DNA of 51,779 nt from Promethearchaeota archaeon (GCA_048939765.1 JBHLPF010000027.1:1-51779), one strand, 5' to 3'. Shown: positions 3,960 to 25,027, counted from the stretch's first letter. Translations and numbers: made by a program. The notes: generated by a model not told the origin, from the sequence alone.

Positions 3960-4676
3960 GTGAGGGTAGCACTAGTGACGGTAAGAATATCGGACGAATT
4001 GGACAGAACGATTGAAGTGCTTCAAAAAGCCTTGAGAAAGGTAGCAGACCTCAACAAGGCGTTAGAACCACTAGAGAACGAGCTCGGTGCGATGGACTTC
4101 GCCAAGAGTGGGATCTATGTTCTTGGAGCGTCCGCGGGTGTGGCCTGTTTCCCTACTGCGCTTGTTGAAGGAGACCCCATGAAACCTATCCTTGATGATG
4201 CAAGAACAAGAGATGCGAAGATGCCCTCAATTGTTGAAGCGGATGACCCAGAAGAATCGACAAGCACCTGTAATCGTGTTATAATGATGCTTAAGAGAGA
4301 AATATGGAACAAGAGAGAGACCATCCTTAAGCCCAGTTTTGTGCTTATCATACGATGGGACCATATGTTTGAAGACTTAGAAAAAGGCAAGACTGTTATT
4401 GTTGGCAAACGGTATATCTCTGGGTCGGAAGACAGCTTGAAGAAGTTGGCAAAGAATCTAAGGAAACTCGGACTTGCGATTATCGAAGACTCAGGCCAAT
4501 ACGGCGGAGGACCAATGACTTATGAGATCATTCAGGAGTTCTCTAAATCTAGGTCACTACTAGTTGTTCAACTCACCTTCTCTCATAGCGCTGCAACAGA
4601 CAAGGCGACAATATTGGCAATGTTAGATATGTTGTCATCATTTCAGGTGCAATCCCATGACAGATACGGGTCCTAG
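3960..4676 (+). CDS. Hypothetical protein; possibly degenerate N-formylglutamate amidohydrolase (Zn-peptidase) fold
   Basis: 238-aa ORF overlapping the next gene. The C-terminal YGGGPMT...VVQLTFS resembles FGase PYxGGxIT...IQxEI, but the metal ligands are not evident. Confidence 0.6.
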   Translation: MRVALVTVRISDELDRTIEVLQKALRKVADLNKALEPLENELGAMDFAKSGIYVLGASAGVACFPTALVEGDPMKPILDDARTRDAKMPSIVEADDPEESTSTCNRVIMMLKREIWNKRETILKPSFVLIIRWDHMFEDLEKGKTVIVGKRYISGSEDSLKKLAKNLRKLGLAIIEDSGQYGGGPMTYEIIQEFSKSRSLLVVQLTFSHSAATDKATILAMLDMLSSFQVQSHDRYGS

Positions 4677-7600
4677 AGAAAGTGAGATGCACCTGCCTTT
4701 TGTCCACGGTATTGAGGTGGAGCTTCAAGTCATCAAAAAGGATGGTTCGTGGATTCGAGGTGAAGATATACTCACCATCTTTGACAAACTAATCTCAAAC
4801 GCCAAGGCGTTGCTTGATAGGAGAATCCAAACGGCTCGAGTAGAATCTGTGAGAAGGAAGTATAAGCATTCCAGTCAGACAGAAGAAGGAGAGCGCGGCT
4901 CAAGGGTTGTGGTTGTATACGATAATGCAAGGGGACAGCCCGCCGAATTTACACTTCTCGGTCATGATCCCAATGTCACGAGTCTGACGTGGATACTGGA
5001 GATTGCGACTCCTCCATGTACCTCGATTGAGGAGCTGGCATGGTGGATGCAAACACTCATTGCCATCTCCTACGAGTCACTCCCCAAAGAAGCTCGTGCC
5101 ATTCTCATATCAACTGGGTTGAATCCTGCTCAGGAATATCTCAAGAATCTCTCATTTGGAGAGCATCATCATATTCTGGGACCAGATGTAGATGATAAGG
5201 TAAGAATTGCTGTATATAATATGCTTCGAAACTTCATCCCACATCTAATTGCTCTTTCCGTCAACTCTCCATTCGAGAATAAGAAACCGACTGATGTTGT
5301 TGAAATTGATGAGGATGGACGGACAATTGCACCAAGATGCAAGAGATCAATCAGACTCATTAGAAATACAACCCAGCTTGGACCTACAAATGAGTTTGAA
5401 CTGATTCCATATATGGTAAAACCGGACAAGGAAGCCTTTGCTAGGCATGTGAATCGTAGCTATTCTAGAATGGTGGATATGTATCCGTTTCATAGGCTAG
5501 GAACAGTTGAGCTGCGAGTCTTTGACACACAATTGTCTATACCACGGAGGATTGGCATTGCATTAATACTTCAAGCTCTTGCCCTAAAGGCTAAGAGAAT
5601 GGTGGAACGGGGAGAGAGGATACCTAATGCTGGGGCGAAGTCACTTGCAGCCAACCGTGAATCAGCTGTTTCTGCGGGGCTGTGGGGTCCGTTTCGACCA
5701 GGCACTAAAACGGACAATCCCGAGTTCATGCACATCTACAACCACATGGTAGATGATGAAGGTGCCATTGAGGATAGAAAAAGAAACCGCTTCATGGGCG
5801 ATGCTGTAGTATCAATGCTATATCTGATTCGAGATGAGTTGGAGGAGCTAGATATCGTTGATAATCCATTTATGCAGCCAATTCTTATTTCGGTGTTTGG
5901 GAGCGAGGTTGTACCCCCAAGAACCACTGGTGCAGACTTCCAGTTGGATGTTTACGCAAAATCGGAAATGAACATGGTAGTCCTGCTGAAAAGCCTAGCT
6001 GACATCACGAGAGAATGCTGTACTAACTGGGTGTATGATCCACTTGAAGGTACACCAAAATTGCCTACATGGTTGTGCTGGTGGACAGGTCTCGAACCAG
6101 AGATTCTGACAGACATTGAACAGCTCTTTGCAGGACAAGAAGCTGAATTTGTTGTTTCCCTAAGAAATACAGGTGAACGACCTCTCCTTAACCTTGGAGT
6201 GGATTTTGCTATAGAGGACTCAGACAGAAATGTAGTCCACGAGGGGACACGCACTATCCCGGAGATCAGCTCAGGACAAATTCATTCCGAACGAATTGCT
6301 TTCCAAACTGCCAAGGATGTCACTGCATACAACATCATAGTGACGATCACTCTTGCCGGGAAGCAGATTCACCTGACTGGAACATTGACTACATACTGGA
6401 TGAAGGCGAATATCAGACCTGGCACCACAACACAATTCTCTGATGGGAAGACGCCCGTTCTCTATGAAGGAGACATTGAGACCAACTTCCCAGAAGCGAC
6501 CGATGTAATAGTAGACATAGCGGTCATTGCTCCTCGCAAAGAGCGAGTTCTGGCTATAGTAACGGACAAGCTTCGAATCGAGAGCCTAGACACACTACTG
6601 TTTGACCAGACAAGCCTTCCAGATCTCATAGTTCCGACTGATGCGTCACACGGCGTTGAACGATGCATACTAAGACTCAATCTTGTGGATGCTGAAGAAG
6701 AGCTAATTACCTCAGTGATGTCTAAGCCATTCTATGTTGGATTTGCCAGAAAAGGCCCACAACTTCTATTTGATGCAGATATTAAGGGAGTATATTACCC
6801 CGGAGATTTGATTGTTGGTGAGATTGAGCTCGCATCCAAGAAACATTCGATGAGCAAATCCGCATTTCTTATTGTAGAGTTTCGCTCAGATTCAGGCGAG
6901 CACCTCGAAATTGCTCGATTTGGCATTAAGGAGGTTACTGAGGGCCCAGTGAGATTCACATGGAGAGTGCCGCCAATCGAATCTGAAGATTTGTCGCATC
7001 GTGCAGGCGTAATTGTTACCTCATTGGTGGACAAGGGAAAAGAAGTTACGTCCGCAGAATCGTCCCGATTCAGAATCGATCGCCTCGGAATCATGCTGAA
7101 TATCGACTCGCTGCGAGCTCCAGAAACAGCCCACATAGGAGGCAAGGTTGCTGGATGGTTGAGGGTTCGACGCAACACAGAACTGGGCGGACCAGCTGGA
7201 TTGACTATTTCGCTGAAGTTCCCCGACGAGAATGAGCAAGTAATTCTTGAGCAAGGGGTAAAGCAAAGCAAGAATCTCTCCTTGTCATTTGGTCCCATAG
7301 TAATTCCTGAGCCAAAGGGGAAAAAGAAATCGTCGAGTGTAACTCTCACAGCGAAACTGACATATGATGGCACAGTCATCGATCAGAGATCCACTGAGAT
7401 AGCCCTATCTGATGGTCCCGAAGGGCAAATTGCAGGCGTGAGCTTCGCAGGAGTCCCAGCGTTTGTATTGCCAGACGAGGAAATCAGACCAGTCCTTCAT
7501 GTGACTAATATCACGGGCAAGAAACTGAAGTATGATATTAGAATAGAATTAGAGTCCATAGGAGGAACTGACCAACTGCTTAAGAGTTCTCGAACCTTGG

Positions 7601-8097
7601 GGCCAGGTCAGAGTAAGATTCTACCGATTAAGCTGCGTGTGCCACTCAGTGCTGAGATGAGTACGGCGCATCTAAAGGCCATCGTGAAGTGCGGCAGACT
7701 CACCATGGAGAGAAAGGAGCGGTTCAAGGTCAAGGCTATTGAAACCCCCGTGTTTGATGTCGATTTCTGGATTCGAAAGAAATCAGGCGAGGATATACCC
7801 GGACTTGTGGCGAGGCTTACAAAGGTAGACCTAGGAGCCAAAATATGTGGGCTCAAGAAAGGGATGCGAGACCTCGGAATAATTCTCAGGGTTATGTCGA
7901 GAAGGGAAATAGTGAAGCAGTTCAAGGCGTCACTTTCTGATGTAGATGCAGGCGAAGAGGAGATCATGTTCCATTGGACTACGCCTCCTGTTGACATGGT
8001 TACTGGGTTCTACTTGGATGCTGTTATCACTCAGGATGGAAAGATGCTCCCAGACAGAGTGGTTCGACAGGATAGAAAGCAATTCACTGTGTACTGA
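4657..8097 (+). CDS. Glutamate-cysteine ligase family 2 (GCS2) carboxylate-amine ligase fused to ~6 Ig-like beta-sandwich domains
   Basis: HGIEVELQ, LEIATPPC, STGLNP, FGEHHHI, LIALSVNSPF, GTVELRVFD. The C-terminal ~670 aa consist of alternating beta-strand repeats of ~110 aa. Confidence 0.85.
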   Translation: MTDTGPRESEMHLPFVHGIEVELQVIKKDGSWIRGEDILTIFDKLISNAKALLDRRIQTARVESVRRKYKHSSQTEEGERGSRVVVVYDNARGQPAEFTLLGHDPNVTSLTWILEIATPPCTSIEELAWWMQTLIAISYESLPKEARAILISTGLNPAQEYLKNLSFGEHHHILGPDVDDKVRIAVYNMLRNFIPHLIALSVNSPFENKKPTDVVEIDEDGRTIAPRCKRSIRLIRNTTQLGPTNEFELIPYMVKPDKEAFARHVNRSYSRMVDMYPFHRLGTVELRVFDTQLSIPRRIGIALILQALALKAKRMVERGERIPNAGAKSLAANRESAVSAGLWGPFRPGTKTDNPEFMHIYNHMVDDEGAIEDRKRNRFMGDAVVSMLYLIRDELEELDIVDNPFMQPILISVFGSEVVPPRTTGADFQLDVYAKSEMNMVVLLKSLADITRECCTNWVYDPLEGTPKLPTWLCWWTGLEPEILTDIEQLFAGQEAEFVVSLRNTGERPLLNLGVDFAIEDSDRNVVHEGTRTIPEISSGQIHSERIAFQTAKDVTAYNIIVTITLAGKQIHLTGTLTTYWMKANIRPGTTTQFSDGKTPVLYEGDIETNFPEATDVIVDIAVIAPRKERVLAIVTDKLRIESLDTLLFDQTSLPDLIVPTDASHGVERCILRLNLVDAEEELITSVMSKPFYVGFARKGPQLLFDADIKGVYYPGDLIVGEIELASKKHSMSKSAFLIVEFRSDSGEHLEIARFGIKEVTEGPVRFTWRVPPIESEDLSHRAGVIVTSLVDKGKEVTSAESSRFRIDRLGIMLNIDSLRAPETAHIGGKVAGWLRVRRNTELGGPAGLTISLKFPDENEQVILEQGVKQSKNLSLSFGPIVIPEPKGKKKSSSVTLTAKLTYDGTVIDQRSTEIALSDGPEGQIAGVSFAGVPAFVLPDEEIRPVLHVTNITGKKLKYDIRIELESIGGTDQLLKSSRTLGPGQSKILPIKLRVPLSAEMSTAHLKAIVKCGRLTMERKERFKVKAIETPVFDVDFWIRKKSGEDIPGLVARLTKVDLGAKICGLKKGMRDLGIILRVMSRREIVKQFKASLSDVDAGEEEIMFHWTTPPVDMVTGFYLDAVITQDGKMLPDRVVRQDRKQFTVY

Positions 8098-11651: not shown

Positions 11652-12491
11652 TTGCAGTTTATTGATCCATATTGGGGAACGGTCCTCATCATCGGATTTG
11701 TGTTCCTCTTCATCTTGATGTTTATCGCTAGTGGAATCAAGGTCCTCAGAGAATGGGAACGCATTGCGATTCTTCGACTCGGAAAATTCCAGGGCGTCAA
11801 GGGCCCCGGTATAACATGGGTCACACCAATCCTTGACAAGATTGCAATGAAGGTTTCGCTCAGACTATTGACCTATGCTTTCAAGACTGAGAGGTCTCTG
11901 ACGAAAGACAACGTGCCAGTTGTTGTAGACGCTGTCATGTACTTTCGCGTGATTGATCCAGAAAAGGCCATTCTGAGCGTTGAAAGATACACGGTTGCAG
12001 TAGAACTTGCCGCTCAGACTACGTTGCGTGAAACTACTGGTAAAGTCACCCTTGATGAGCTTCTCGCGGAAAGAGACAAAATAGCAGAACATCTACAGGA
12101 GCTCATTGATGAGAAAACTGAGCATTGGGGCGTTAAGGTCACATCTGTTGAGATCCGCGACGTTGTAATCCCAGCAGCTCTTCAGGACGCCATGAGCAGA
12201 GAGGCTCAAGCTGAGAGAGAACGGCGTGCGAGAATCACATTAGCAACTGCTGAGCTGGAAGCTGCAGAGAATATGATGAAAGCTGCTAAGAAGTACGAGG
12301 AATCCAATGTAGGCTTTGTTCTAAGAACTTGGAACATCATGCAAGAGATATCCAAGAATGCGAACTTGATAATCATGGTGCCTACAAACATACCTGAAGT
12401 GGGTGTAACCTCGGCTACAGCAGCTGCAATTTCTGCAGGTACTGGTGGGCTAAAAGTGCCCAAGAACAAGGGAATGGCAGATGAAGATTAG
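11652..12491 (+). CDS. SPFH/band 7 (stomatin-like) protein
   Basis: N-terminal TM; EWERIAILRLGK, TKDNVPVVVDAV, AQTTLR, WGVKVTSVEIRDV, EAQAERERRA. Confidence 0.95.
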   Translation: MQFIDPYWGTVLIIGFVFLFILMFIASGIKVLREWERIAILRLGKFQGVKGPGITWVTPILDKIAMKVSLRLLTYAFKTERSLTKDNVPVVVDAVMYFRVIDPEKAILSVERYTVAVELAAQTTLRETTGKVTLDELLAERDKIAEHLQELIDEKTEHWGVKVTSVEIRDVVIPAALQDAMSREAQAERERRARITLATAELEAAENMMKAAKKYEESNVGFVLRTWNIMQEISKNANLIIMVPTNIPEVGVTSATAAAISAGTGGLKVPKNKGMADED

Positions 12492-12511
12492 AATAACGCT
12501 GAGAGGTTGAC

Positions 12512-13213
12512 ATGATGGATGCATGGATTAAGATCTTCGTCGTGTTATTGCTGATGTCACTACTCAGTGTCCTCATAGGTTATGTCTTGTTTAATCCATT
12601 TGTCGGGTTGATTCTTGTTTCGATTGTGCTGACCCTGATGGTGGTTGCTGTTGAACCAGCAAGCGGAAAAGCCATGGCGCAGGTCGTTGTTCCCATCGTA
12701 CTCATCCTCTTCGCAATGCAGGTGTTCTTCACGCCCGGTTTCACCGTTGATATAGTCGAGCTTGTCGTCATTGCTGGAATGCTCTTCTTGATGCTTGCCA
12801 TATTCACTGGTGGCGGAGGATTCGTGGATGGCGGGTTCATAGATGCCAAAGTGACATGTAAGCTCTTTCCGTTCTACGGGGTAGCAATACTTCTCTCTGT
12901 GCTTGTAGATCCTACAAGGACAATTACTGTCTATCTCATGGTAGGAACTGTCATGGGATTAATGGTGCTCTATGGCATATTCCTTAGAGGCTATGATAAG
13001 TGGCCTGAGTTCTCAGAGTACGACAAGATGCACGATGTCATTGCCATTTCAGACATCAATCCGATTGGCAAGGTGAAAGCAGGTGCAGCCATTTGGAGAG
13101 CCAGAACAGATGGGCCGCCCATCAGCAAGGGAGAGAGTGTATCTGTTCGCGGGATAACTGGCTTGACAATGATTGTGGGCCACGAGGTCCCTGGGGAGTT
13201 CAATCAGCGCTAG
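12512..13213 (+). CDS. NfeD-like membrane protein (C-terminal OB fold), SPFH partner
   Basis: Several TM helices then GKVKAGAAIWRA...ISKGESVSVRGITGLTMIV; directly downstream of the SPFH gene. Confidence 0.8.
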   Translation: MMDAWIKIFVVLLLMSLLSVLIGYVLFNPFVGLILVSIVLTLMVVAVEPASGKAMAQVVVPIVLILFAMQVFFTPGFTVDIVELVVIAGMLFLMLAIFTGGGGFVDGGFIDAKVTCKLFPFYGVAILLSVLVDPTRTITVYLMVGTVMGLMVLYGIFLRGYDKWPEFSEYDKMHDVIAISDINPIGKVKAGAAIWRARTDGPPISKGESVSVRGITGLTMIVGHEVPGEFNQR

Positions 13214-14254: not shown

Positions 14255-15550
14255 TTGCTCTTGTCTGAAACAAGACGTCTGCTACTGGAGTTCGAAACGG
14301 AAGAAGTCGGAATCCGCGCTTCAAAGGATAAGAGGGTAAAAAAGGCACTGGTTAGTGCGTTTTCCGATGCATCCGATGTTGTGAGGGAGCGGGCTCTTCT
14401 AGCAGCAATTGATGTTGGCGATCCGACTATTGTGACTGACATAATCAAGGCAATGACGGATGAAGAAGACAGCGTTAGAGTTGCAGCCGCGCAGGCTCTG
14501 GCATTCTATCACCAGCCAAGGACAATCCCTAATCTATTGAAAGGACTTCAAGACATCAATACATGGGTCAGGTCGCATTGTGCTGTAGGACTCTCAAAGC
14601 TGCTAAATGGCCCAATTTGGGCAAGACTTGAGTCAAGTGACGTTGAAGACCTTATTGCTGGCTTTCCTGAAATGCAGGATTCAGCTATTCGTTCAAGACT
14701 AAACAAGATGAATCTGGACTCAGATGCCATTAATAGATACTTGACCTGGCGAGCAAAGGACTTTGACATTGAAGTCGATGTTACAGACTTTGTCAGGGGA
14801 TTGGAAGAAACGCCGATAGTATTGCCAGGTGTGGCCGAAGCCGCTGCAGCGGCTCCATCCGATGAGGCCCCGAGGAGAACTGCAGGCGTTTCTCCGGAGG
14901 TTGAGGAGATTCTTGGTGAATTGCCAGATGATCTTCGTGAAACTCTGCCGGAGGAGGACCTCAGAAGACTCACTCCTGATACAGCAAGGGAATTGGTCAC
15001 CTCCTTGACTACAGCGATGCCCACTGCGAAGCCCAAAGAGAAGGAGAAGAAGAAAGCAGTCAGGGTCAGGAAAGTCAAAAAGGTTCGCAGAAAGAAGAAG
15101 GGACCAAGCAGACAGGAACTCATGGAGATGATTCCAGAAGAAGTGAGGGAATCAGTTTCGGATGATGTTCTCAAGACATTGACATATGAGGAGCTTGAGG
15201 CGCTAATCGCATCAACAACTGAAACCGCAGCTCCCGAAGCAGACGCTTCCAAAAAGCTATCTACGAAGGAGGCAATAATTGAAACGCTTCCTGCGGAAGT
15301 AGTTGAGTCAGTCGGCGATGGTAAACTACAGAGGATGACTGTGACGGAGCTAGAGGAGCTTGCTGCTACCGCGAGTATGAGTGATGATGAACGTCGACTT
15401 CAGGATTTCACGGAGAAATTTGGTGAAGAGAAAGCGAAAGTTCTCGTAGGAGTGTCTGAGGAAATGCTTGCTGGTATCCCGGAGGAACAAATCCATGAGA
15501 TGGACTTGGACACTTTGAAGGCACTTGTTCAGGCTCTGGAACACACCTAG
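14255..15550 (+). CDS. HEAT-repeat protein with four C-terminal ~30-aa helical repeats
   Basis: PBS-lyase-type HEAT motifs (DASDVVRERA, DEEDSVRVAAAQAL, DINTWVRSHCAVGL) followed by repeated LPxxxxExxxxxxLxxxTxxxxxxL units. Confidence 0.8.
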   Translation: MLLSETRRLLLEFETEEVGIRASKDKRVKKALVSAFSDASDVVRERALLAAIDVGDPTIVTDIIKAMTDEEDSVRVAAAQALAFYHQPRTIPNLLKGLQDINTWVRSHCAVGLSKLLNGPIWARLESSDVEDLIAGFPEMQDSAIRSRLNKMNLDSDAINRYLTWRAKDFDIEVDVTDFVRGLEETPIVLPGVAEAAAAAPSDEAPRRTAGVSPEVEEILGELPDDLRETLPEEDLRRLTPDTARELVTSLTTAMPTAKPKEKEKKKAVRVRKVKKVRRKKKGPSRQELMEMIPEEVRESVSDDVLKTLTYEELEALIASTTETAAPEADASKKLSTKEAIIETLPAEVVESVGDGKLQRMTVTELEELAATASMSDDERRLQDFTEKFGEEKAKVLVGVSEEMLAGIPEEQIHEMDLDTLKALVQALEHT

Positions 15551-15557
15551 CTCATAC

Positions 15558-16838
15558 CTACTCCGATCCGCGTATGACAATTGCGAATTCACTTGCCAGC
15601 TTTCCATACCACTCTAAAAGATCTCTCATGTTGTCAACATGCCGATATGTTCCATTGCCGTACTGTGCCATTGCGAGCATCAATTCCTCATCAATCTCAC
15701 TTCGTTCGCCAAGTCCGATGGTGTAAATCACAAGGCTGGCCGTATCTGCAAATCGATCCTTGAGAACCTTAAGTGGAGCGGGGCCAGATGTCGTCATTCC
15801 ATCTGTCATCATGATGAGCATTGTCGGCTTTGTCGGGTCCCCAAATGCTTTGATGATGTCGGCAGCCCGCACGAGAGCAGTCCCCATATCTGTTAGAGTG
15901 CCTCCCTCCTCAATTTTATCCACCACGTGAGTGCTTATGATTTGAAGACCAAGAGCCTTCTCTCTTCCTGTACACTCAACATAAGGTTGGACCTCCCCGG
16001 TTTCTGAACTCAAAAAGGTCATCTCAGTAACCTCTTTCTCGAAAGTCACAACTCCAACTTTCTCGCCATAGCCTCTCCCAACCTTTTCTGCAAGGTACAG
16101 CAGGACGGCCATTGCCGCAGCCTCACCTCTGCTTACATTTGTTCCTTCCTTGAAACGATCGAGAAATGCTTGGACCTCTGGATTGTCCCCGGCGAGATCT
16201 TTGAGGCCTTCACGCGCATGAGCTATGTCCTGAACAGGGACATCGGTCGTTTTCATCGAACCGCTTGTATCAATACAAAGCACTGCATTGAAAGGAGTAG
16301 CAATTCCTATAGTCTTGAATTGATATCCGGTTCGTTCTTTAAGAGCTTCAAAGGCGAGTTTGGCGAATCTCTTGCCTGAGAGAGCTGGACGAGTTGTCAT
16401 TATCTCGACTTTCACGTTCAGCTCTGGCCAAATGAATGACATTCCTGGGTATACTAGACGTCCACCTATGAGCTTCTCTAAAGATGCGACTTGTTCAGCA
16501 GCTCGCGTCACAAGGTCTTCAGTACTTGCATCCTCAGTTAGGGGCTTGAGTCCGAATTCCACATACTCCAGTGCAATCATGTCCTCATCATACAGAGTCA
16601 CTTCTATGCCAGAGTCGCCTTCCATTAAGAGCGAGGCCTCAAGAACCAAGGTATCAATTCTGATTCTGTCAGGCGGAACTCCATCATTGATTCTTATTTG
16701 AGCAGCTCCCCAGAAAGATGATGCAGGATCCTCAAACACAACGATGGAACCCAGCTCAGCATTGAGCTTCTTAGCAGTCTTTGGGTTGAGAACGGCGTAT
16801 CCTCGCAGATCTCCGCCATCATCAATCTCCAGTTTCAC
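15558..16838 (-). CDS. Cdc48/NSF N-domain-like + von Willebrand A (intact MIDAS) protein
   Basis: N-terminus RGYAVLNPKTAKKL...G.IV...DRIRID...GRLVYPG resembles VAT-N/Cdc48-N. VWA motifs DTSGSM, TDMGTAL, MTDG, IYTIGLG. Confidence 0.8.
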   Translation of the reverse strand: MKLEIDDGGDLRGYAVLNPKTAKKLNAELGSIVVFEDPASSFWGAAQIRINDGVPPDRIRIDTLVLEASLLMEGDSGIEVTLYDEDMIALEYVEFGLKPLTEDASTEDLVTRAAEQVASLEKLIGGRLVYPGMSFIWPELNVKVEIMTTRPALSGKRFAKLAFEALKERTGYQFKTIGIATPFNAVLCIDTSGSMKTTDVPVQDIAHAREGLKDLAGDNPEVQAFLDRFKEGTNVSRGEAAAMAVLLYLAEKVGRGYGEKVGVVTFEKEVTEMTFLSSETGEVQPYVECTGREKALGLQIISTHVVDKIEEGGTLTDMGTALVRAADIIKAFGDPTKPTMLIMMTDGMTTSGPAPLKVLKDRFADTASLVIYTIGLGERSEIDEELMLAMAQYGNGTYRHVDNMRDLLEWYGKLASEFAIVIRGSE

Positions 16839-16923
16839 CGACTTGGTGATGTCATTCTCCTCCTATTGTAAGTTGTTTAACTCTTCTTCAGATTCATTAT
16901 AAACAATTGTGCCAGCCTGTTCG

Positions 16924-18432
16924 TCACACTAGTAACTTCAAAACCTCTCTAGTAAGGTCTACTGCCGTCCTGCTCTTGATGGGATTTGTATTAATCGCTT
17001 TGGTGAATGTGGCGTTAATTCTCTGAGTTCCGAACTCAAGACTATCGAGGGAATCTTCACCTTTTGTTCCAAGAACAGTGCAGCTTGTTATAGTTCCAGG
17101 CCCCCTTTTTACCCAAAGGTGCAATTCTGTTATACCGTCACGAACACCCAGAGAAATAACATACGAGTCAAAGTAAATGCCATTATGACCACCTGAACCG
17201 ATGGATTCCATCTTTGGCCATGTGTGCTTTGGAGGTATCATGTAGTCTACGGAAGTGATATCCCAACCCTCACCAGCAATCAGCTTCATCAGGGTATCTT
17301 CCAAGGTGACTATTGCGTCGCTTTCGCAACCAATACAGACAACTGTTTGAGGAGGGCGCTCTGTAGCTCTCTGTGTCCCAAATGGACGATTAACCAAGGA
17401 TAGTGCATTTCCGCCAAGAATTCTCTGAGCGTCCTCTAATCCACCTGGAAAGTCGCGTGATAAAAGGTGAAGTATGACTTCAGCAGCTTGTACTGAGAGA
17501 AAGGTATAGTCAGTCCCAAAGAGCAGATTATCCGACCAGCTCCCCATGGGCATCTCTAGTCGATCATTCGACATTCTGAAGAGGACAGGAACGTCCTTGT
17601 CATGGAGGGTAGAGGTTTCTCCGTAGATAGCAGGATCTCGCAGGATTTCATAAAGCTTGGTGCTTCCTGGACTCATAGCACAATGCGCGAGGATCACACT
17701 CAATCCCCGCATAGCATTTGCGTATTTATTATCCTCTCTCATTGACACAACGAGGTTTCTTATTCTCTCAGCTGTCCGGATGTTCCTAGTGTCCAGGATC
17801 ACAGGGACATGTAGCTCTCCTGCCCTGGCAACAACGGCCTTCACATAATCGGACTCGATGTCTTCCAAGAAGAGCTGAGCAAGAGGATGAAGCTTCAAGC
17901 CCCTGAGACCAAGCTGTCCGATAGCTCTGTCAAGCTCTCGAATTGGCAAATCAGGTTTTCCACTCAGGGCGTCCTTTGGATCTACCCTCGCAAAGCCAAT
18001 AAGTCTGGATGAATGAGGAGCATGTGATGTCCAGGCCGCAATCCTGTCGTTCGAAACGTAAAACGATGGCTCATCAGGTGACCGACTCTTGCAGTAATCA
18101 TCCGTGTAGGGGAATACAATTGTACGGTCGACTAACCAGCCATGATTCATCCGTGCCCACTTCTCTTTGGCTGTGAAGATTCTCTCAGGCAATTCGGGCG
18201 ACTCAATCCTAACAGGGTCATAGAGCAAGCTGTCATCATTCCTCATTTTCTCAGCCATTCGCTGCATCTCAATCCATAATAGCGCGTAGAACTCATATGC
18301 CCCGCTAGGAGTGTTCCGATGGCTCTTCTCTTTGCCCATATGTTGATGAGCATCCACAATGTATAGCTTGAACTCATCTCCCTTCTTGATCCTTCTCTCT
18401 GGAATGTCCTGAACTGCACGAACAACCAACAT
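16924..18432 (-). CDS. Amidohydrolase family (COG2159-like TIM barrel) with extra C-terminal domain
   Basis: VDAHQH, IGFARVDP, GLKLHP, ILAHC, LLFGTDY, ILGGNA. Confidence 0.85.
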   Translation of the reverse strand: MLVVRAVQDIPERRIKKGDEFKLYIVDAHQHMGKEKSHRNTPSGAYEFYALLWIEMQRMAEKMRNDDSLLYDPVRIESPELPERIFTAKEKWARMNHGWLVDRTIVFPYTDDYCKSRSPDEPSFYVSNDRIAAWTSHAPHSSRLIGFARVDPKDALSGKPDLPIRELDRAIGQLGLRGLKLHPLAQLFLEDIESDYVKAVVARAGELHVPVILDTRNIRTAERIRNLVVSMREDNKYANAMRGLSVILAHCAMSPGSTKLYEILRDPAIYGETSTLHDKDVPVLFRMSNDRLEMPMGSWSDNLLFGTDYTFLSVQAAEVILHLLSRDFPGGLEDAQRILGGNALSLVNRPFGTQRATERPPQTVVCIGCESDAIVTLEDTLMKLIAGEGWDITSVDYMIPPKHTWPKMESIGSGGHNGIYFDSYVISLGVRDGITELHLWVKRGPGTITSCTVLGTKGEDSLDSLEFGTQRINATFTKAINTNPIKSRTAVDLTREVLKLLV

Positions 18433-18576
18433 CTAAATGCGGCCTCGGTTAGTGGAGGCTACTGACTTGTGAGAGATAAAGTATTCCTTCATGGACAGAA
18501 GCACGAAGTCCGTCTGCGTCAGGCATATATCCGAACATGTGAAAATGGAGAACAGAGTCCCTGGGAGCATATATTG

Positions 18577-21237
18577 ATGCTTGTTGTTGAAGACACTGCA
18601 GAGGGTGAGGTGAAGCGCTTCCTGGTTGTTGATGCGCTGATACAACTAGGAGAGATTCAGGCCGGTTCTCAAAGCAGAGTCTTTGATCCCAATAGGGTAC
18701 TCTCATTCTACGATATGGTTGAGAATCAACTACACGATTATTCAAGCAAATATCCTGAGGCTTTCAAATATATCCCCCGAAGAGCCTATACGTACCTCAA
18801 GAAACCTCCTATTCTGAGCGAGTTATATCACGATGTTTCTTCTTCAGAATTAGGCTGGTTTGCCGATCTCTTTGCAGTTAGACCGATCCTAAGCATAGGT
18901 GAAACTAGACTTCCTCTTGACCAGCGTAAGAATAACATTACTCGCACCGAGAACTGGACTGTTACTCCACCCTTCAGCTCAAGGCTATATCGACTTCAAG
19001 ATATGAGATATGGGAGTCGGGGTAGAAATGGGTGGGGAGCAGTAATGACTGCAACAGATCTCAAAGAGTCGTTGAGAAACGACAATCGGGCGGACCTCTT
19101 GAGCTACTTCAAATCCCAATTGCCACTGATAATTGAGATTGAAAAAGGAGATGACCTTGATCTACTAATGGAATGGCTCGTCTTTCTAAAAGATGCTGGA
19201 CTTGAGGCCCCACCCTCCCTTTTCTTGCTTCGTGACCATAAGGCGTGGAACTCTGAGATCGTCCGACTGCTTCAGATTCCAAACTCCAGACTATTACTTG
19301 CAGGTGCAACAATCTCGTCATTATCAACGTTAATCAAAGACCTTCGCAGCTCAAAAGTGGATTCCAATTGGTCCAAGAAGTTTGTTTTTGCCAGCACATA
19401 TCCTGAAACTCAAAGAGGTGATAGCATAACAGAGATTCTCAGCTTCCTTCTGAGCAATAACTTAGGAGCTACTCCTGAAGAGCTGCAAAGGATTCTTGCA
19501 GGCAACTTTCTTAGTATGATTCCGCCAAGACCTCCATATTATGAGTATGTTGACAACACCTCGAGTGTAATTGCTGAAGGATTGATTGGAAAGGCATCGC
19601 TGGGTGAGCTGTCAAGAATCTTCAGAATTCTCGCCGCTAGAAAGGTACAGATAATCGAGTCTTTTGATTACATGATTGCAAACGAAGGCGGCGAAATCCA
19701 GCTAAATGATTCGGTTCTAACTGTAAGAAATCCTATATCAAAGACCGCCAATACTGTAGTCCTGCTAAACGAGCCAGATGACTCCCTCACGGTTTCCGGC
19801 TGGAGAGAGTCTCTAACAAGAAAGTCTCCAGATAGAGGAGTAGACCCTCTCAGAGCTCTAGTTCAATCAACAGCGAGATCAGATGGTCCCATTCTGCAGT
19901 CGCCTTCAGATATCAACCGGTTCAATCATGCCCTCCTAGAGTGTTTGAAAGTGAGGAATTTGCAGGAGGTTCTTTCTGCGCTGCATTTCAAGCTGAATAT
20001 TTCTGGCACTAAGAATGGAACCTTACTGATGTCAGAAGAGGATATGCGGGCGGTGGGTTTAGCAAATGGGAATCTAGTGTTGGGGATGGATGCCATGGAG
20101 GGCCAGTGGTGGGCGGGGCATGTCGAGCTAGATGCAGGATGCCCTCAGAGAACGATCTGTGTCTCAAAAGATGATGGACTAATTCTCGGGCTCTCGGAAG
20201 AATCCATTGTCGACATAGTCAAGAGCGAAGGCAAGATTAAGAACCTAGAGAAAGCAGTCTTTGCTTTGGACTCGACCAAGGGATTCTCAAGAGCGGAGTT
20301 ATTGTCGTACGCATACCTGCATGAGGAAAGACTACAAAAGACGCTGAATGGTCAAATCCTAGGCAAGGGAACTTCAATCTGGATCAATGGTCGTGATGCA
20401 GGTGCTTGCATGACACTCACTCACTCAGTTCCACAATTAGAACCGGGAGAATTGGCCAGACTCACAGGCGACTCATTGGAATTCAGACCTTTGCAGATGT
20501 TCAGACCATTCAACATGATTCTAGCCATATCGACAGATAGTGGAATGGGTGTTCAAGACATTGAACTCAAGACATTGCACTCCTTGAAACGAAGATTGAG
20601 CGCATTGGTTTCGATTGTGCCGGAGATTGAAGACTTCTTTTCTAGACTTGGGACCTCCATAACTAGAATGGATACGGCCACACTTGCAGCTTTACTGCTG
20701 ATTCAAAGTCTCTCCGGGAATAGAACTGATGGATCGCTGGGTATTGTCACAGTTGGAGAAACACCCACTAAATTCTCAATTCAGAAGGGAGAGATAATTC
20801 AGACGAGACTGCAGTTCTCAAATGACTTGGCGTCTGAAGATGTTGTGGTGTCAATCCTCTATTCGCTCCTGGATAGCGCCCACGATTTTGGAGGTGGAGC
20901 CAGATTGTCCGGCGCATTCAGATCTATAGCCGAGTTCCTAGAAGACTTTGGTACCGAAATGCCAACACTGATTTTATTGATGGCCAATCTAGGTGGTGAA
21001 ACCTTCGAAGATGTGAAACCATTCCTCCAAGCAATTGCATCAAGGAATAGATACCAAATGGAGATTCTCAACCTGGGAGAAGATGCTCAAAGCCTCAGCT
21101 CTGATTTCAAAGATATTAATGTAAGAGTGCACCACATGACCAGTTTTGCAGCTGACGTTTTTGAGGGCTATTTGGCTAACGTTATTGAGAAACTAGTGAT
21201 GGGAGACATTGACCGTTCTACTTCCGATGTTTTTTGA
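18577..21237 (+). CDS. Fusion of inactive amidohydrolase paralogue + Cdc48N-like + degenerate VWA
   Basis: Colinear similarity to 16924..18432 and then to 15558..16838. Start placed at ATG 18577 (MLVVED) because it matches the paralogue N-terminus MLVVRA; the ORF track starts at 18469. Confidence 0.8.
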   Translation: MLVVEDTAEGEVKRFLVVDALIQLGEIQAGSQSRVFDPNRVLSFYDMVENQLHDYSSKYPEAFKYIPRRAYTYLKKPPILSELYHDVSSSELGWFADLFAVRPILSIGETRLPLDQRKNNITRTENWTVTPPFSSRLYRLQDMRYGSRGRNGWGAVMTATDLKESLRNDNRADLLSYFKSQLPLIIEIEKGDDLDLLMEWLVFLKDAGLEAPPSLFLLRDHKAWNSEIVRLLQIPNSRLLLAGATISSLSTLIKDLRSSKVDSNWSKKFVFASTYPETQRGDSITEILSFLLSNNLGATPEELQRILAGNFLSMIPPRPPYYEYVDNTSSVIAEGLIGKASLGELSRIFRILAARKVQIIESFDYMIANEGGEIQLNDSVLTVRNPISKTANTVVLLNEPDDSLTVSGWRESLTRKSPDRGVDPLRALVQSTARSDGPILQSPSDINRFNHALLECLKVRNLQEVLSALHFKLNISGTKNGTLLMSEEDMRAVGLANGNLVLGMDAMEGQWWAGHVELDAGCPQRTICVSKDDGLILGLSEESIVDIVKSEGKIKNLEKAVFALDSTKGFSRAELLSYAYLHEERLQKTLNGQILGKGTSIWINGRDAGACMTLTHSVPQLEPGELARLTGDSLEFRPLQMFRPFNMILAISTDSGMGVQDIELKTLHSLKRRLSALVSIVPEIEDFFSRLGTSITRMDTATLAALLLIQSLSGNRTDGSLGIVTVGETPTKFSIQKGEIIQTRLQFSNDLASEDVVVSILYSLLDSAHDFGGGARLSGAFRSIAEFLEDFGTEMPTLILLMANLGGETFEDVKPFLQAIASRNRYQMEILNLGEDAQSLSSDFKDINVRVHHMTSFAADVFEGYLANVIEKLVMGDIDRSTSDVF

Positions 21238-21508
21238 GAGACTCAATTGTCCCTATTCGGGTTTCAAGCACATCTACCTCAACTACAATGGCGTCGATTG
21301 CATTGCCGATATCCTCAATGGCATTGAAGTGGTCACGAATACTCAGTCCTTCTAACCGCCTAGCATCTGCATCTATAAAGGATAGAGATTCTTCGACGCT
21401 GCGTAGGCGTGCCTCAATTTCCTCAATTATGCTCAGCGTTTCTTCAACCCGACCGATTGCAGGAGGGAGTTTCGGACTTTCTGGCACAGGATTCACATCC
21501 AACTTCAA
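21218..21508 (-). CDS. Small coiled-coil protein
   Basis: Heptad pattern; 4-nt overlap with the upstream 21505..22746 gene. Confidence 0.65.
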   Translation of the reverse strand: MKLDVNPVPESPKLPPAIGRVEETLSIIEEIEARLRSVEESLSFIDADARRLEGLSIRDHFNAIEDIGNAIDAIVVEVDVLETRIGTIESLKKHRK

Positions 21509-22746
21509 TCAATAAGCTGAGAGGCACGTTCCTCGATATTTCCTAGTCTTTCAGATAGCTCTTCAAGTCTATCAAGCAAATGTCCAAGCTTGGTGCGCAG
21601 CATCCCCACAGCTGCCCCTTCATCTCCTCCAAAATCACCTGTCATCATAGCTGAGTTCAGTCGTTCTCCAAGTAGACTGGATTGGTTCTCGATGACTTCC
21701 AATCTCTCGATGATTTCTTCAACTGGAAACTTCTCCATCCGCTCTCTTAGCTCATCAACTAGTCTGGTGAGATTCTGAGCTGCTCGTTTCTCTTCATCGC
21801 TTATTGTCGACTTCACTGGCTCTGCAAGGGAGAAGGACTTCTTCACTCCTTCTAATATGCCTCCAGGTTTGCTGACCACCACTTCTCGAGTTCTAATGGG
21901 CGGATGAATTCTATCACCCCTTTCGAACCAAGCAGGCACTAGAAACTTGCGTGTGATATCCTCAAAATCTCTATCCAATAGGATGGCGAATGTAGCTAAT
22001 TCACGTGGATTATCCCATATGGCTAGCTCTACACTGTCTTCCTTTCTAAGAATCGCCGCAGCCACTCCTAGATTCAAATCCTCAAATATCGGCAGGTCAA
22101 TGAGCCAACGGCTGAATAGAAGCGCAAAGGCTGGGATCTGTCTTAGTTTGCCACATCGGAGAGCAATTGAGTATTCCTCCTCCGGCTGTTCAATTGCCTG
22201 TTTTATCCAGATTGATGTGTTGAATTTCCTTCCAGGGATAGAGAGGCTAAGAACTTCAGCAGCCTCCCATTCTATTGCGTCTATTCTTAACTGTTCAATA
22301 TAGTCCAAGTGGGGTTCTTCAAATTCAGGAGAGAGTTTCTCTCCCAAGATATACTTCAGAACAAGGCGAATGATTTCATGCGGGGAATAGTCACGCAACC
22401 AGATTGTTGTGACTAGCTTGACTCGCCCTCCTGCATGTTCATCATCGGATAGCACAACGACGAGCTTCGATGAGTCCAGCCCCGGCTCTCCAAGAATGAA
22501 GATGCCTGTCCTTCCAGGAGCGTCCATTGCGCGATCAGCCATCAACTGTATAGCTTCGTGCGTCGGTTCAATGTAGTTCTCTTGATTGAATTTCGTGGTT
22601 GAAGACTCTTGGAGTCCCTTCACAAGCAGCCCTTCCTCAACCCAACCCGATTTGAGTCCCTTTTCTGGAAGTTGCGCTATTAGATAGCCAAGTATCTCGC
22701 TACTACTATACATTGCTTGAAGTCTGGTTATTGCCTCGTCGTTCAC
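21505..22746 (-). CDS. Hypothetical protein, alpha/beta N-terminal region + C-terminal coiled coil
   Basis: 413-aa ORF with 4-nt overlaps on both sides. Confidence 0.75.
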   Translation of the reverse strand: MNDEAITRLQAMYSSSEILGYLIAQLPEKGLKSGWVEEGLLVKGLQESSTTKFNQENYIEPTHEAIQLMADRAMDAPGRTGIFILGEPGLDSSKLVVVLSDDEHAGGRVKLVTTIWLRDYSPHEIIRLVLKYILGEKLSPEFEEPHLDYIEQLRIDAIEWEAAEVLSLSIPGRKFNTSIWIKQAIEQPEEEYSIALRCGKLRQIPAFALLFSRWLIDLPIFEDLNLGVAAAILRKEDSVELAIWDNPRELATFAILLDRDFEDITRKFLVPAWFERGDRIHPPIRTREVVVSKPGGILEGVKKSFSLAEPVKSTISDEEKRAAQNLTRLVDELRERMEKFPVEEIIERLEVIENQSSLLGERLNSAMMTGDFGGDEGAAVGMLRTKLGHLLDRLEELSERLGNIEERASQLID

Positions 22747-23870
22747 CTGCCAACAACCTCGTTCTCAATCCTATTGAATATTCCTTCAATCGCTTGTGTA
22801 ATATCTTTGAATTGGTCTATATGAATCAGACTACCATTCCCTGCATTTGCAATGGCCTGCATTAAATCCCTGTCAGATTTAACTCCCAGTGCCACGCTTG
22901 TAATCAAAATGTCTTCGCACGCACCAATTTTCCTTGCCATATTGACTGGATTGCGACCTGAAGTAAATGCGCCCCCGGATATGAGTATCACATTGGTGGA
23001 TAGTCCGTTCCGCGAATTCAGATGTCGTGCTACTTCAATAGACAATTCCAAGGCACTTCCAGGATTAGAAGGTTCATCGTTGCGATCATTATTCTGTTCT
23101 GAGAGCCAATTGAGGATTGGTTGACATGATTCTGAACTCAATTGAAGTGCGCTACCTTCACTGGTTGTCAATTGTTCGGATGACTCACCAAACGCAATAG
23201 CTGAAACCAAATTGACATCGCACTCCCTAATAGAGGACAGTATGGCTTCAATTGCACGCAGACCAGCTTTGAAACGCGTGATTCCTCCAGTGCCATTTTC
23301 CATCTCTACATCCTGAATGCTAGACGATGCTCCAACGTCTATCGCGAAGCATACATTGAAACAGGATGGTAATTCAGCCTGAGCGGTCAGATTGACTTTC
23401 AATATCTGATTCCACATGATTCTAGATGCCTGAAATTGCTCGGCAATAGGATTCAGGCGTTCCACGACAAATCCTACGCTGAGTTCAGCAATATCAATTC
23501 GCTGTCCCATCCGTACAATCAGACCATCAAGATAATCCTTGAGATCTTCGATTCGTTTGGATAAGGCATCCACAGCTTTCGTATTCACTAATCCTTCAAG
23601 GGAATAAATTAGGAGCGACAGCTCATTGGAGTCAGGAATCGTTTCAGGAACAGCTGTCAAAGAGACTTCGCTGTGCTCTTCACATCCCAACTCATCGAAT
23701 ATTCGGGAATCCATTACAATAGAGCCAGAAGCTACTTTCTCCGAAGTGCGTATGTCAGAAAAGACAATGACACCCCCATAACTCAATTGGGCTGTGGCAA
23801 TCGTGGTCACAGAAGGATGCACAAATGAGATTCCTCTCTGCTTTCGTCCTTTGATAGCTTCGAGTTCCAA
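22743..23870 (-). CDS. Cdc48N-like + VWA protein (partly degenerate MIDAS)
   Basis: GSIVMDSRIFDELG...DYLDGLIVRMGQ parallels 15558..16838; FNVCFAIDVGAS, SNPGSAL, ILISGG, SVALG. Confidence 0.75.
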   Translation of the reverse strand: MELEAIKGRKQRGISFVHPSVTTIATAQLSYGGVIVFSDIRTSEKVASGSIVMDSRIFDELGCEEHSEVSLTAVPETIPDSNELSLLIYSLEGLVNTKAVDALSKRIEDLKDYLDGLIVRMGQRIDIAELSVGFVVERLNPIAEQFQASRIMWNQILKVNLTAQAELPSCFNVCFAIDVGASSSIQDVEMENGTGGITRFKAGLRAIEAILSSIRECDVNLVSAIAFGESSEQLTTSEGSALQLSSESCQPILNWLSEQNNDRNDEPSNPGSALELSIEVARHLNSRNGLSTNVILISGGAFTSGRNPVNMARKIGACEDILITSVALGVKSDRDLMQAIANAGNGSLIHIDQFKDITQAIEGIFNRIENEVVGR

Positions 23871-23884
23871 GACCGGCCACGCAC

Positions 23885-25027
23885 CTAATACAGACGTGTA
23901 TTGTATATCGCAGTTGCGAGGGATTTGGAACCATACATGACCTCAACACGAATGCTTGCCTTGCCTTTTTCATCTGTCATTGGTGTGAGCTGCGACTCAA
24001 TATGTCGTTCAGAGTTGGGGCCAATCTCATGCTTCTCATTTGTGACCTCGGACACCCCTTCCGGCGTGATCAATGTGACTACAAGACGGATTTCTACGAC
24101 AGCATGACTTGGATTCTTCACTCTCAAGTCGTACATGAATGGTCTTCCGGCGATCAGGGCATCAGGGACTTCACCAAGCTCCACGCTCATTCCCATCTTA
24201 GATGCCGCAAGAGGCCGACCCTTTGGCCACCTCGCAATCTTACTGAGCTCAAGCAATCGTGATAGCGAGGTCTTTACATCCCTAAGATCCAGTCCAAGAT
24301 GAACTGCAGCCTCACCGATGTCAAATGTCCCATCATTGGCTTCATAGTAGGCAAGGACTTTTCGATCAGACTCAATAAGGTCACTCACTCCCTCAAGAAT
24401 TTGGAGAATAGCTTCAGGTAATTCGTGTGCTTCCTGAAGAGAATAGTATCGTCCTCCGTCTACCGAATCTGCGATGCTTTTGAAAGACTCTCTCACCAGA
24501 GGATTACAGCCACAGACGAAAATGAAGACGGTCTCCCCATAACGGCTCTTGAGAGATTGAGCTTCTCTCTGAGGGTCATGGCCTTTGGGGCATCCATCTG
24601 GAAAGTAATCATCGCTAAGGTTGTTGTACTTTCTGCCATGTGGTGGTGCATCACCGACAAGTAGCAACGCCTTGTAGGCATGTTCATCCCACGATAGCTT
24701 TGTCCTGGCATCAAACAATCCATCAGCAACAGCTTCAGGCGTATCTCCGCCCTGAGAGGGATTAAGATTTGATATCTCCCTATGTACATTCTTGATACGA
24801 TCCGAGAAATCGAAAATCCGTGTCACGTAGGAGTGATCCTGAGGCGGATGATCACGATACGAAACTATCGCGAATCGTATACTCAAGTCCTTGGTTCGTG
24901 TAGTGATTCTGTCGACTATCTCGAACAGACTGTCCTTCACCGCACGTATGTCATCCTTCATTGAACCGGTCGTATCGACCACAAAAGCAACGTCAAGTTT
25001 GGCTCGCTGCAGCCCAATCCACTCCAT
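23885..25027 (-). CDS. VWA domain + winged helix + Ig-like domain protein
   Basis: DTTGSM, SYRDHPPQD, GGDTPEAV, GDAPPHG; then FDIGEAAVHLGLDLRDVKTSLSRL (HTH) and a C-terminal beta sandwich. Confidence 0.85.
   Translation of the reverse strand: MEWIGLQRAKLDVAFVVDTTGSMKDDIRAVKDSLFEIVDRITTRTKDLSIRFAIVSYRDHPPQDHSYVTRIFDFSDRIKNVHREISNLNPSQGGDTPEAVADGLFDARTKLSWDEHAYKALLLVGDAPPHGRKYNNLSDDYFPDGCPKGHDPQREAQSLKSRYGETVFIFVCGCNPLVRESFKSIADSVDGGRYYSLQEAHELPEAILQILEGVSDLIESDRKVLAYYEANDGTFDIGEAAVHLGLDLRDVKTSLSRLLELSKIARWPKGRPLAASKMGMSVELGEVPDALIAGRPFMYDLRVKNPSHAVVEIRLVVTLITPEGVSEVTNEKHEIGPNSERHIESQLTPMTDEKGKASIRVEVMYGSKSLATAIYNTRLY

Follow-up and report, generated by a model that had tools for sequence, protein, structure and literature searches.

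According to our analysis, the seven genes found between positions 15558 and 25027 of a 51,779-nucleotide stretch of Promethearchaeota archaeon DNA (GCA_048939765.1, JBHLPF010000027.1:1-51779; the whole stretch is called the window below) are not one system and do not represent one conserved unit. We explain them, with moderate confidence in the explanation as a whole, as a composite of three layers: an old core consisting of a metal hydrolase and of a docking protein that joins a Cdc48-N-type domain (Cdc48N) to a VWA domain, a catalytically dead fusion of these two proteins that faces the core, and an add-on operon of the Thorarchaeota coding for non-catalytic binding proteins. The same explanation places the core pair, together with a giant ligase encoded elsewhere in the window, in a module that would have been inherited, duplicated and lost as a unit in Asgard archaea. 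The original prediction for this locus had regarded it as undescribed, and the literature searched contained no description of it. The module was likewise not found there.

Composition of the Locus

Judging by protein matches, the source genome is a metagenome-assembled genome (MAG) of the Thorarchaeota (3.37 Mb, 108 contigs, 88.5% complete). All seven open reading frames (ORFs) are genuine and have the coordinates originally given for them. They are listed below with the ligase gene and its upstream neighbor, which lie outside the originally delimited interval (aa, amino acids; MIDAS, metal-ion-dependent adhesion site).

15558..16838, minus strand: docking protein, Cdc48N (double-psi barrel)-VWA, 426 aa, MIDAS intact; the best-conserved gene of the locus
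16924..18432, minus strand: metal hydrolase of the Amidohydrolase_2 type, 502 aa, with a C-terminal domain of ~150 aa to which no fold was assigned
18469..21237, plus strand: dead amidohydrolase fused to a MIDAS-less Cdc48N-VWA protein, ORF of 922 aa
21218..21508, minus strand: coiled-coil protein, 96 aa, last gene of the Thorarchaeota-specific operon
21505..22746, minus strand: protein of 413 aa, two alpha/beta domains (weakly roadblock-like), helical bundle at the C-terminus
22743..23870, minus strand: Cdc48N-VWA paralogue of 375 aa that evolves fast and has no functional MIDAS
23885..25027, minus strand: VWA protein of the VWA_4 type, 380 aa, with a DTTGS motif and, at the C-terminus, an Ig-like region; opens the operon
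4657..8097, plus strand: giant GCS2/YbdK-type ATP-dependent carboxylate-amine ligase, 1146 aa
3960..4676, plus strand: protein of 238 aa, overlapping the start of the ligase gene by 20 nt

The hydrolase gene lies upstream of the docking gene in the same direction, with a gap of 85 bp. Between this core pair and the four-gene operon sits the plus-strand ORF of 922 aa, which is convergent to the 96-aa gene and overlaps it by 20 bp. The operon (25027 to 21218) has exactly the spacing described in the original prediction: the 380-aa and 375-aa genes are 14 bp apart, and overlaps of 4 nt join the 375-aa to the 413-aa gene and the 413-aa to the 96-aa gene.

A Three-Gene Module in Asgard Archaea

All-against-all clustering of 15 loci revealed that only three families recur around the docking gene across the deeper lineages, namely the hydrolase, the Cdc48N-VWA protein (fusion included) and the giant GCS2/YbdK-type ligase. 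Adjacent hydrolase and docking genes, in the same order, were found in the Asgard families that we number f1, f2, f6, f7, and f19, and the ligase gene directly adjoins hydrolase or docking genes in f6, f7 (two copies), f19 (two copies), f22, and f27. Its orientation is convergent in f6, f7, and f19, and in f22 all three genes are co-directional. In the window, the ligase gene lies 7.5 kb from the core pair; its product matched the NCBIfam model TIGR02050 (E 1.6e-15), and the NCBIfam search returned GCS2 models for it and nothing else. The module ligases are 979–1399 aa long and carry long non-catalytic tails.

Co-occurrence was assessed in 151 genomes representing 27 Asgard families. Hydrolase, docking protein and ligase are all present in eight of these families (f1, f2, f6, f7, f9, f19, f22, and f27), and neither the hydrolase nor the ligase was detected in any of the 19 remaining sampled families, where the docking protein is represented by weak VWA-only matches (f10, f12, f26) or by a divergent long form (f24). 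Since related genomes are not independent of each other, we report this as family counts and not as a statistic. Each module gene is present in two copies in f7 and f19, and all three genes have been lost jointly in the Thorarchaeota genera g23–g26, within f1.

A gene for a protein of 214–508 aa is located directly upstream of the ligase gene in f6, f7, and f19. The 238-aa protein of the window is tied to the upstream gene of f7 by a weak GGGP motif alone (E 0.035), and it is possibly a fourth, fast-evolving partner of the module.

The Cdc48N-VWA Proteins

The three Cdc48N-VWA proteins recognized in the original prediction are indeed paralogous: the 426-aa protein aligned with residues 505–840 of the 922-aa protein (BLASTP, E 1e-15) and with the 375-aa protein (E 3e-11), and both alignments begin at residue 1 of the N region. 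The third of them is present but is not a separate protein, as had been assumed; it forms the C-terminal half of the plus-strand fusion with the dead amidohydrolase. None of the seven proteins of the locus has a Walker A motif or an AAA match in Pfam, in line with the claim that the locus encodes no such ATPase.

Profile, Pfam and fold comparisons agree that the N region is a double-psi barrel of the Cdc48-N type. A family profile built from 36 diverse Cdc48N-VWA members and compared with PDB sequences matched designed double-psi beta-barrel proteins (E 3.6e-6), residues 43–117 of yeast Cdc48 (E 1.2e-4), NSF (E 4.4e-4) and also plant CDC48A. The Pfam model CDC48_N (PF02359) matched 15 of the 36 members, with a best E value of 1.7e-6; the 426-aa protein of the window by itself reached only E 0.34. 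In its AlphaFold2 model (mean predicted local distance difference test score, pLDDT, 71.5), residues 2–82 pass twice through a beta-beta-alpha-beta arrangement, with a pLDDT of 58–91 per 10-residue block. A Foldseek comparison of the N domain, which had been suggested as a check, aligned it with isolated p97/CDC48A N domains over 155–168 columns, with a template modeling (TM) score of ~0.48 normalized to the target. The second N subdomain (Nc, PF02933) is weakly indicated, with a pLDDT of 52–70 at residues 85–150 and a CDC48_2 match in one of the 36 members at E 0.12.

The VWA domain of the 426-aa protein is canonical and was confirmed by profile, Pfam and fold. The MIDAS motifs are as originally read, DTSGS in the 426-aa protein and DVGAS and STDSG in the two other paralogues, and the complete pattern DxSxS...T...D occurs in the 426-aa protein only, being incomplete in the 375-aa protein and in the 922-aa fusion. 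To call this decay graded is generous, however, because in the 375-aa protein and all ten of its orthologues examined the MIDAS residues are gone, the distal Asp included. D190, S192, S194, and D346 are retained in at least 90% of the 36 diverse family members. The docking-protein orthologues are 63–98% identical across Thorarchaeota; with respect to one complete Thorarchaeota genome, identity falls from 77% (docking protein) to 49% (hydrolase), 46% (ligase) and 42% (fusion). The docking protein is thus under strong constraint.

An insert in the VWA domain after the MIDAS loop (residues ~197–262) carries the motif R...AA.LA.L.YL.EK..RG.GEK, which is near-invariant in Thorarchaeota, recognizable family-wide, and deleted in the 375-aa paralogue. 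The docking protein of f9 is longer (~720 aa; L022:8680-10845 and other f9 genomes) and has an extra N-terminal region with its own weak CDC48_N match. On one metagenome contig (L012:6970-11290), the genes of two Cdc48N-VWA proteins stand in tandem, the first protein having 1004 aa with a 570-aa tail and the second 429 aa, and such paired paralogues recur. Going by the names in the source records, family members also occur in Korarchaeota and Thermoplasmatota MAGs.

The Hydrolase and Its Inactive Fusion

The amidohydrolase reported in the original prediction scored 43.6 bits against Amidohydro_2 (PF04909; cut-off 26.4); a phmmer search with it against PDB sequences gave no match at E<=0.01. 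To the front half of the 922-aa protein it is related by BLASTP. We aligned 10 free hydrolases with five fused copies, drawn from seven Asgard families. The metal ligands (HxH, His, His, and Asp) are retained in all 10 free orthologues, which come from 7 families. In the fused copies (five of five; f1, f2, f7, and f19) both further His residues and the Asp are replaced, and of the HxH pair one His at most survives, in two of the five. The free docking proteins keep their MIDAS, whereas the fusions have lost it along with the hydrolase ligands. Based on the alignment with orthologues of 848–893 aa, the fusion likely starts at the ATG at 18577, which gives a protein of 886 aa.

The hydrolase-docking fusion is present in f1, f2, f6, f7, and f19, and the VWA halves of the sampled fusions (f1, f2, f7, and f19) form a single clade (support 97/93), which means that the fusion arose early; the details of the tree are uncertain owing to long branches. 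The 922-aa gene therefore encodes the catalytically dead product of an ancient fusion between hydrolase and docking protein. By the Rosetta-stone argument, such a natural fusion suggests that the two proteins interact where they are encoded separately.

One 97%-complete Thorarchaeota genome (G019:C27:82034-93411) has kept the fused gene and a divergent ligase of 708 aa; no orthologue of the hydrolase or of the 426-aa docking protein was detected in this genome.

The Thorarchaeota Add-On Operon

In the complete Thorarchaeota genome mentioned above, the hydrolase, docking, fusion and VWA_4 genes have the same arrangement and flanks as in the window, and the 375-, 413-, and 96-aa genes are absent. 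The latter three are confined to part of f1, and in f2 other genes take their place. The idea of a single seven-gene system does not survive this comparison. Scattering of the genes in related genomes had been named as an argument against such a system; in the relatives compared here, the core hydrolase-docking pair is kept adjacent, and the add-on genes are patchy. The f2 genes at the add-on position (463 aa and 105 aa) were considered as relatives of the 413-aa and 96-aa proteins, with which they have no detectable homology.

The 380-aa protein, with orthologues in f1 and f2, matched PF25106 (E 1.5e-13) and PF00092 (E 1.7e-10), and its Ig-like end had a weak Pfam match (Transglut_C, E 0.014). 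An Atlas search with it returned its own Thorarchaeota cluster and generic VWA_4 clusters, and nothing else. The 375-aa protein forms a long branch that remained unplaced in the tree, and its orthologues, found in part of f1 only, are 27–81% identical. The 413-aa protein, restricted to Thorarchaeota, had been called a coiled-coil protein, which fits its helical C-terminal bundle but not its globular front of 290 aa. For the 96-aa protein all Pfam matches are of the coiled-coil type. A protein of 693 aa from a short metagenome contig (P0161) is a natural fusion of Cdc48N-VWA with VWA_4, of the same subtype as in the 380-aa protein, and supports the pairing of the 380-aa and 375-aa proteins. Taken as part of the overall explanation, with the confidence stated for it at the outset, the four-gene operon would be a Thorarchaeota addition of non-catalytic binding proteins.

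A Branch Linked to Ubiquitin

In family f33, a 570-aa member of the Cdc48N-VWA family carries a C-terminal ubiquitin-family domain (Pfam, 25.8 bits; cut-off 25.4). Its gene is convergent to an operon for ubiquitin, E1 (ThiF), E2 (UQ_con), a JAB protease and a 375-aa protein; this arrangement was found at L026, L027 (5098-11087), L035 (5350-11448), and L039 and on one Sigynarchaeota contig. Searches with phmmer showed the ubiquitin-like (Ubl) tail to be closely paralogous to the ubiquitin encoded in the operon (E 9e-25 to 3e-27); the tail ends without the terminal Gly-Gly. The Ubl-bearing form is restricted to f33, and in the same genome a Ubl-less docking copy adjoins a GCS2 ligase of 1327 aa. 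In the tree, the ubiquitin-linked proteins group with the module-linked copies of f7, f19, f22, and f27 (support 100/100), and this group is sister to the clade that holds the 426-aa protein of the window. From the fusion, the neighborhood and the tree together we conclude that a protein-tagging system recruited a recently duplicated copy of the docking protein. This link favors a role in protein tagging and is the best available hint that the family handles tagged or taggable proteins; the proteostasis-adaptor idea of the original prediction gains indirect support from the same branch.

The 375-aa protein of the f33 operon (L027:6814-7941, minus strand), encoded between the JAB and Cdc48N-VWA-Ubl genes, is rich in Cys and His at its C-terminus (CxxC ... 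CxxCxH), which on visual inspection resembles a RING domain; Pfam gave no match at E<=0.01. It has no detectable relationship to the 413-aa protein of the Thorarchaeota.

The source genome, at its 88.5% completeness, had no E2 above the cut-off and no ubiquitin, and E2 was found in none of the 26 other sampled f1 genomes. Because f1 has no detectable E2, we do not grant the Thorarchaeota proteins a role as ubiquitin receptors. In f7, f9, f19, f22, and f27, E2 and the module coexist, so the module is no substitute for ubiquitin. In f27 an E2 gene occurs 5 kb away from the ligase gene; it stands alone between a TnpB fragment and methionyl-tRNA synthetase (MetRS), and we read its position as a coincidence.

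Neighboring Genes

A HEAT-repeat gene (14255-15550) is convergent with the docking gene, 7 bp from its stop, and is kept in f1 and f2 (L001, L003, L020). A Band7-NfeD pair (11652-13213 in the window) lies 2.3 kb from the docking gene, and in f7 and f19 the fused pseudo-hydrolase/Cdc48N-VWA gene has a divergently oriented Band7/SPFH neighbor (L015:12987-13922; L017:1-354). These Band7 neighbors may reflect a link to membrane microdomains or chance.

Relationship to Known Systems

The barrel of the module proteins is homologous to the N domains of Cdc48/p97/VAT and NSF and to the UT3 domain of Ufd1. In known proteins, domains of the Cdc48-N type bind adaptors, substrates or ubiquitin. The barrel of the module proteins differs from those of Cdc48 and NSF in that it is not attached to AAA rings and that its Nc subdomain is only tentative.

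The top two-domain Foldseek matches were DEPDC5 and yeast Iml1 (E 1.9e-9 to 1.7e-7; 430–470 columns), although the superposition is poor (rigid-body root-mean-square deviation ~21 A) and p97 N-D1 scores nearly as well. In DEPDC5, the N-terminal domain (NTD) is Sec18/NSF-N-like and the SABA domain is Sec23-like, a combination described as otherwise unique (PMC8534245). As in DEPDC5/Iml1 (Sea1; GATOR1/SEACIT), a barrel is followed by a VWA/Sec23-trunk-like domain and an ATPase is absent. In contrast, the module proteins keep a canonical VWA domain with MIDAS, have nothing after it, contain no SHEN, DEP or C-terminal domains, and have the hydrolase and the ligase as partners instead of NPRL2/NPRL3. 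Searches with the hidden Markov model (HMM) IML1 (PF12257) came back empty for this genome (E<=10) and for the 36 family members (E<=1), and the NPR2 HMM (PF06218) had no valid match in this genome. NPRL2-like proteins have been noted in most Thorarchaeota MAGs, with no mention of a DEPDC5 homologue (bioRxiv 10.1101/2020.10.19.343400).

For the VWA half, the second-best match overall and the closest archaeal one was ArnB of Sulfolobus (PDB 8s05 and 5a8j; E 2.9e-14 and 1.2e-11), which lacks a Cdc48N domain and has an FHA/zinc-ribbon protein as its partner in the ArnA-ArnB complex. The f33 locus, with a VWA protein encoded beside a JAB deubiquitinase and Ub-E1-E2, resembles Rpn10-Rpn11 and MERIT40-BRCC36; the protein in question is a sister copy and not a Thorarchaeota gene, f1 is without detectable E2 or ubiquitin, and no ubiquitin-interacting motif was seen. 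With the MoxR/VWA pairs (NorQ-NorD, CbbQ-CbbO, CoxD-CoxE) the module shares a MIDAS-bearing VWA gene beside a possible client metalloenzyme, but no MoxR gene is adjacent in the five genomes considered below, and the known pairs lack a Cdc48N domain. The module ligase matches GCS2/YbdK models and is three times longer than YbdK. By functional analogy, ligase and hydrolase recall the write/erase pair PafA/Dop of pupylation, with the differences that the eraser has the TIM-barrel amidohydrolase fold and is not a paralogue of the ligase, and that neither a tag protein nor a link to a proteasomal ATPase was found for the module.

Proposed Mechanism and Alternative Explanations

In the mechanism that we propose, the docking protein would form a complex with the hydrolase, and its MIDAS metal site and Cdc48N cleft would hold a carboxylate-bearing protein or peptide. 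The ligase would use ATP to write an amide-linked mark, which the hydrolase would erase; the removal of a modification by the amidohydrolase, already suggested in the original prediction, is plausible. The dead fusion and the add-on proteins may scaffold or regulate the hydrolase-docking complex, and the module would operate without an AAA ATPase. We give the three-layer locus, the three-gene module and this write/erase scheme, taken together, about an even chance of being right. Several points weigh against them. The Thorarchaeota ligase gene is distant from the core pair, with unrelated genes between, and the docking gene of f9 lies 10–57 kb from the ligase-hydrolase pair. BLASTP revealed no conserved small tag protein beside the ligase, though short fast-evolving tags could escape such a search, and the tie to ubiquitin is limited to one family, where it involves a paralogous copy. 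Characterized GCS2/YbdK and Amidohydro_2 enzymes act on small molecules. The physical interaction is predicted from the fusion and from synteny, and the substrate, the tag and the product are all hypothetical. As a separate observation, the f9 ligase is short (~570 aa) and adjoins the hydrolase gene. A bolder version, in which ligase, hydrolase and Cdc48N-VWA protein would be the writer, eraser and reader-adaptor of a new Asgard amide modification parallel to ubiquitin and pupylation, and the family would be the stock from which the NTD-SABA pair of DEPDC5/Iml1 arose, is speculative and in our opinion unlikely.

The main rival is a role in small-molecule metabolism, in which ligase and hydrolase form and cleave an amide metabolite of the gamma-glutamyl or a similar type and the VWA protein serves as a metal-insertion or assembly chaperone of the hydrolase. 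It would account directly for the YbdK/GCS2 matches of the ligase and for the fact that Amidohydro_2 members are mostly small-molecule enzymes, and VWA/MIDAS metallochaperone partners such as NorD and CobT are known (PMC9976466 for NorQ/NorD). Known chaperones of this kind act together with a MoxR AAA+ partner, however, which is absent here, and neither the size of the ligases with their long tails, nor the many non-catalytic paralogues and coiled-coil partners, nor the fusion of one branch to ubiquitin would be expected; we regard this role as unlikely. The partner favored by the original prediction was an AAA ATPase encoded elsewhere, to be fed by a Cdc48N-VWA adaptor complex while the amidohydrolase trims a modification. 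The homology of the N domain to that of Cdc48/NSF fits this proposal, other contigs of the genome carry two Cdc48/VAT genes and several MoxR genes, and the Ubl-bearing sister branch near Ub-E1-E2-JAB has an architecture that in eukaryotes docks on Cdc48 or the proteasome. On the other hand, no AAA or MoxR gene stands beside a module gene in genomes of five families (G000, G030, G063, G029, G124), and wherever a MoxR gene of these genomes shares a contig with the module, ~9 kb or more separate it from the closest module gene; the weak MoxR-type match of G063 is found ~9 kb beyond the ligase gene of one of its module copies. G030 has an AAA gene 7 kb away from a stand-alone copy (L013), with no equivalent at the other loci. 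Of the synteny originally suggested as a check, links to Cdc48/MoxR genes and to ubiquitin genes in f1 were not seen, and a ubiquitin operon stands beside the f33 sister copy only. Gene context gives no support to an AAA partner encoded elsewhere; moreover, Cdc48 has its own N domain, and the conserved partner is a ligase and not an unfoldase. We consider this proposal somewhat less probable than the metabolic one.

A GATOR1-like scaffold, in which counterparts of DEPDC5/Iml1 NTD-SABA and the roadblock-like 413-aa protein would regulate a small GTPase, draws on the Foldseek ranking over both domains, on the reported uniqueness of the domain combination and on the NPRL2-like proteins of Thorarchaeota. 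It appears improbable to us in view of the negative IML1 and NPR2 searches and the missing SHEN, DEP and C-terminal domains, and no GTPase gene is conserved beside the module. More improbable still is a conflict or defense system with fast-evolving sensor proteins. Accessory genes do differ between close relatives, and the divergence of the 375-aa protein within one family would suit a sensor, but PADLOC found no match among nine proteins, the core is vertically inherited with flanks stable across two families, and the locus contains no nuclease, toxin or mobile-element genes.

Conclusion

No closer relatives of eukaryotes are known than the Asgard archaea, and in them the module of ligase, hydrolase and docking protein could be a new protein-modification pathway. 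The Cdc48N-VWA family provides a prokaryotic precedent for a domain pair otherwise called unique to DEPDC5, a regulator of mTORC1. The tie of the f33 branch to an archaeal ubiquitin operon offers a concrete handle for experiments, and the dead fusion supplies a ready-made hypothesis for the mode in which hydrolase and docking protein may bind each other.

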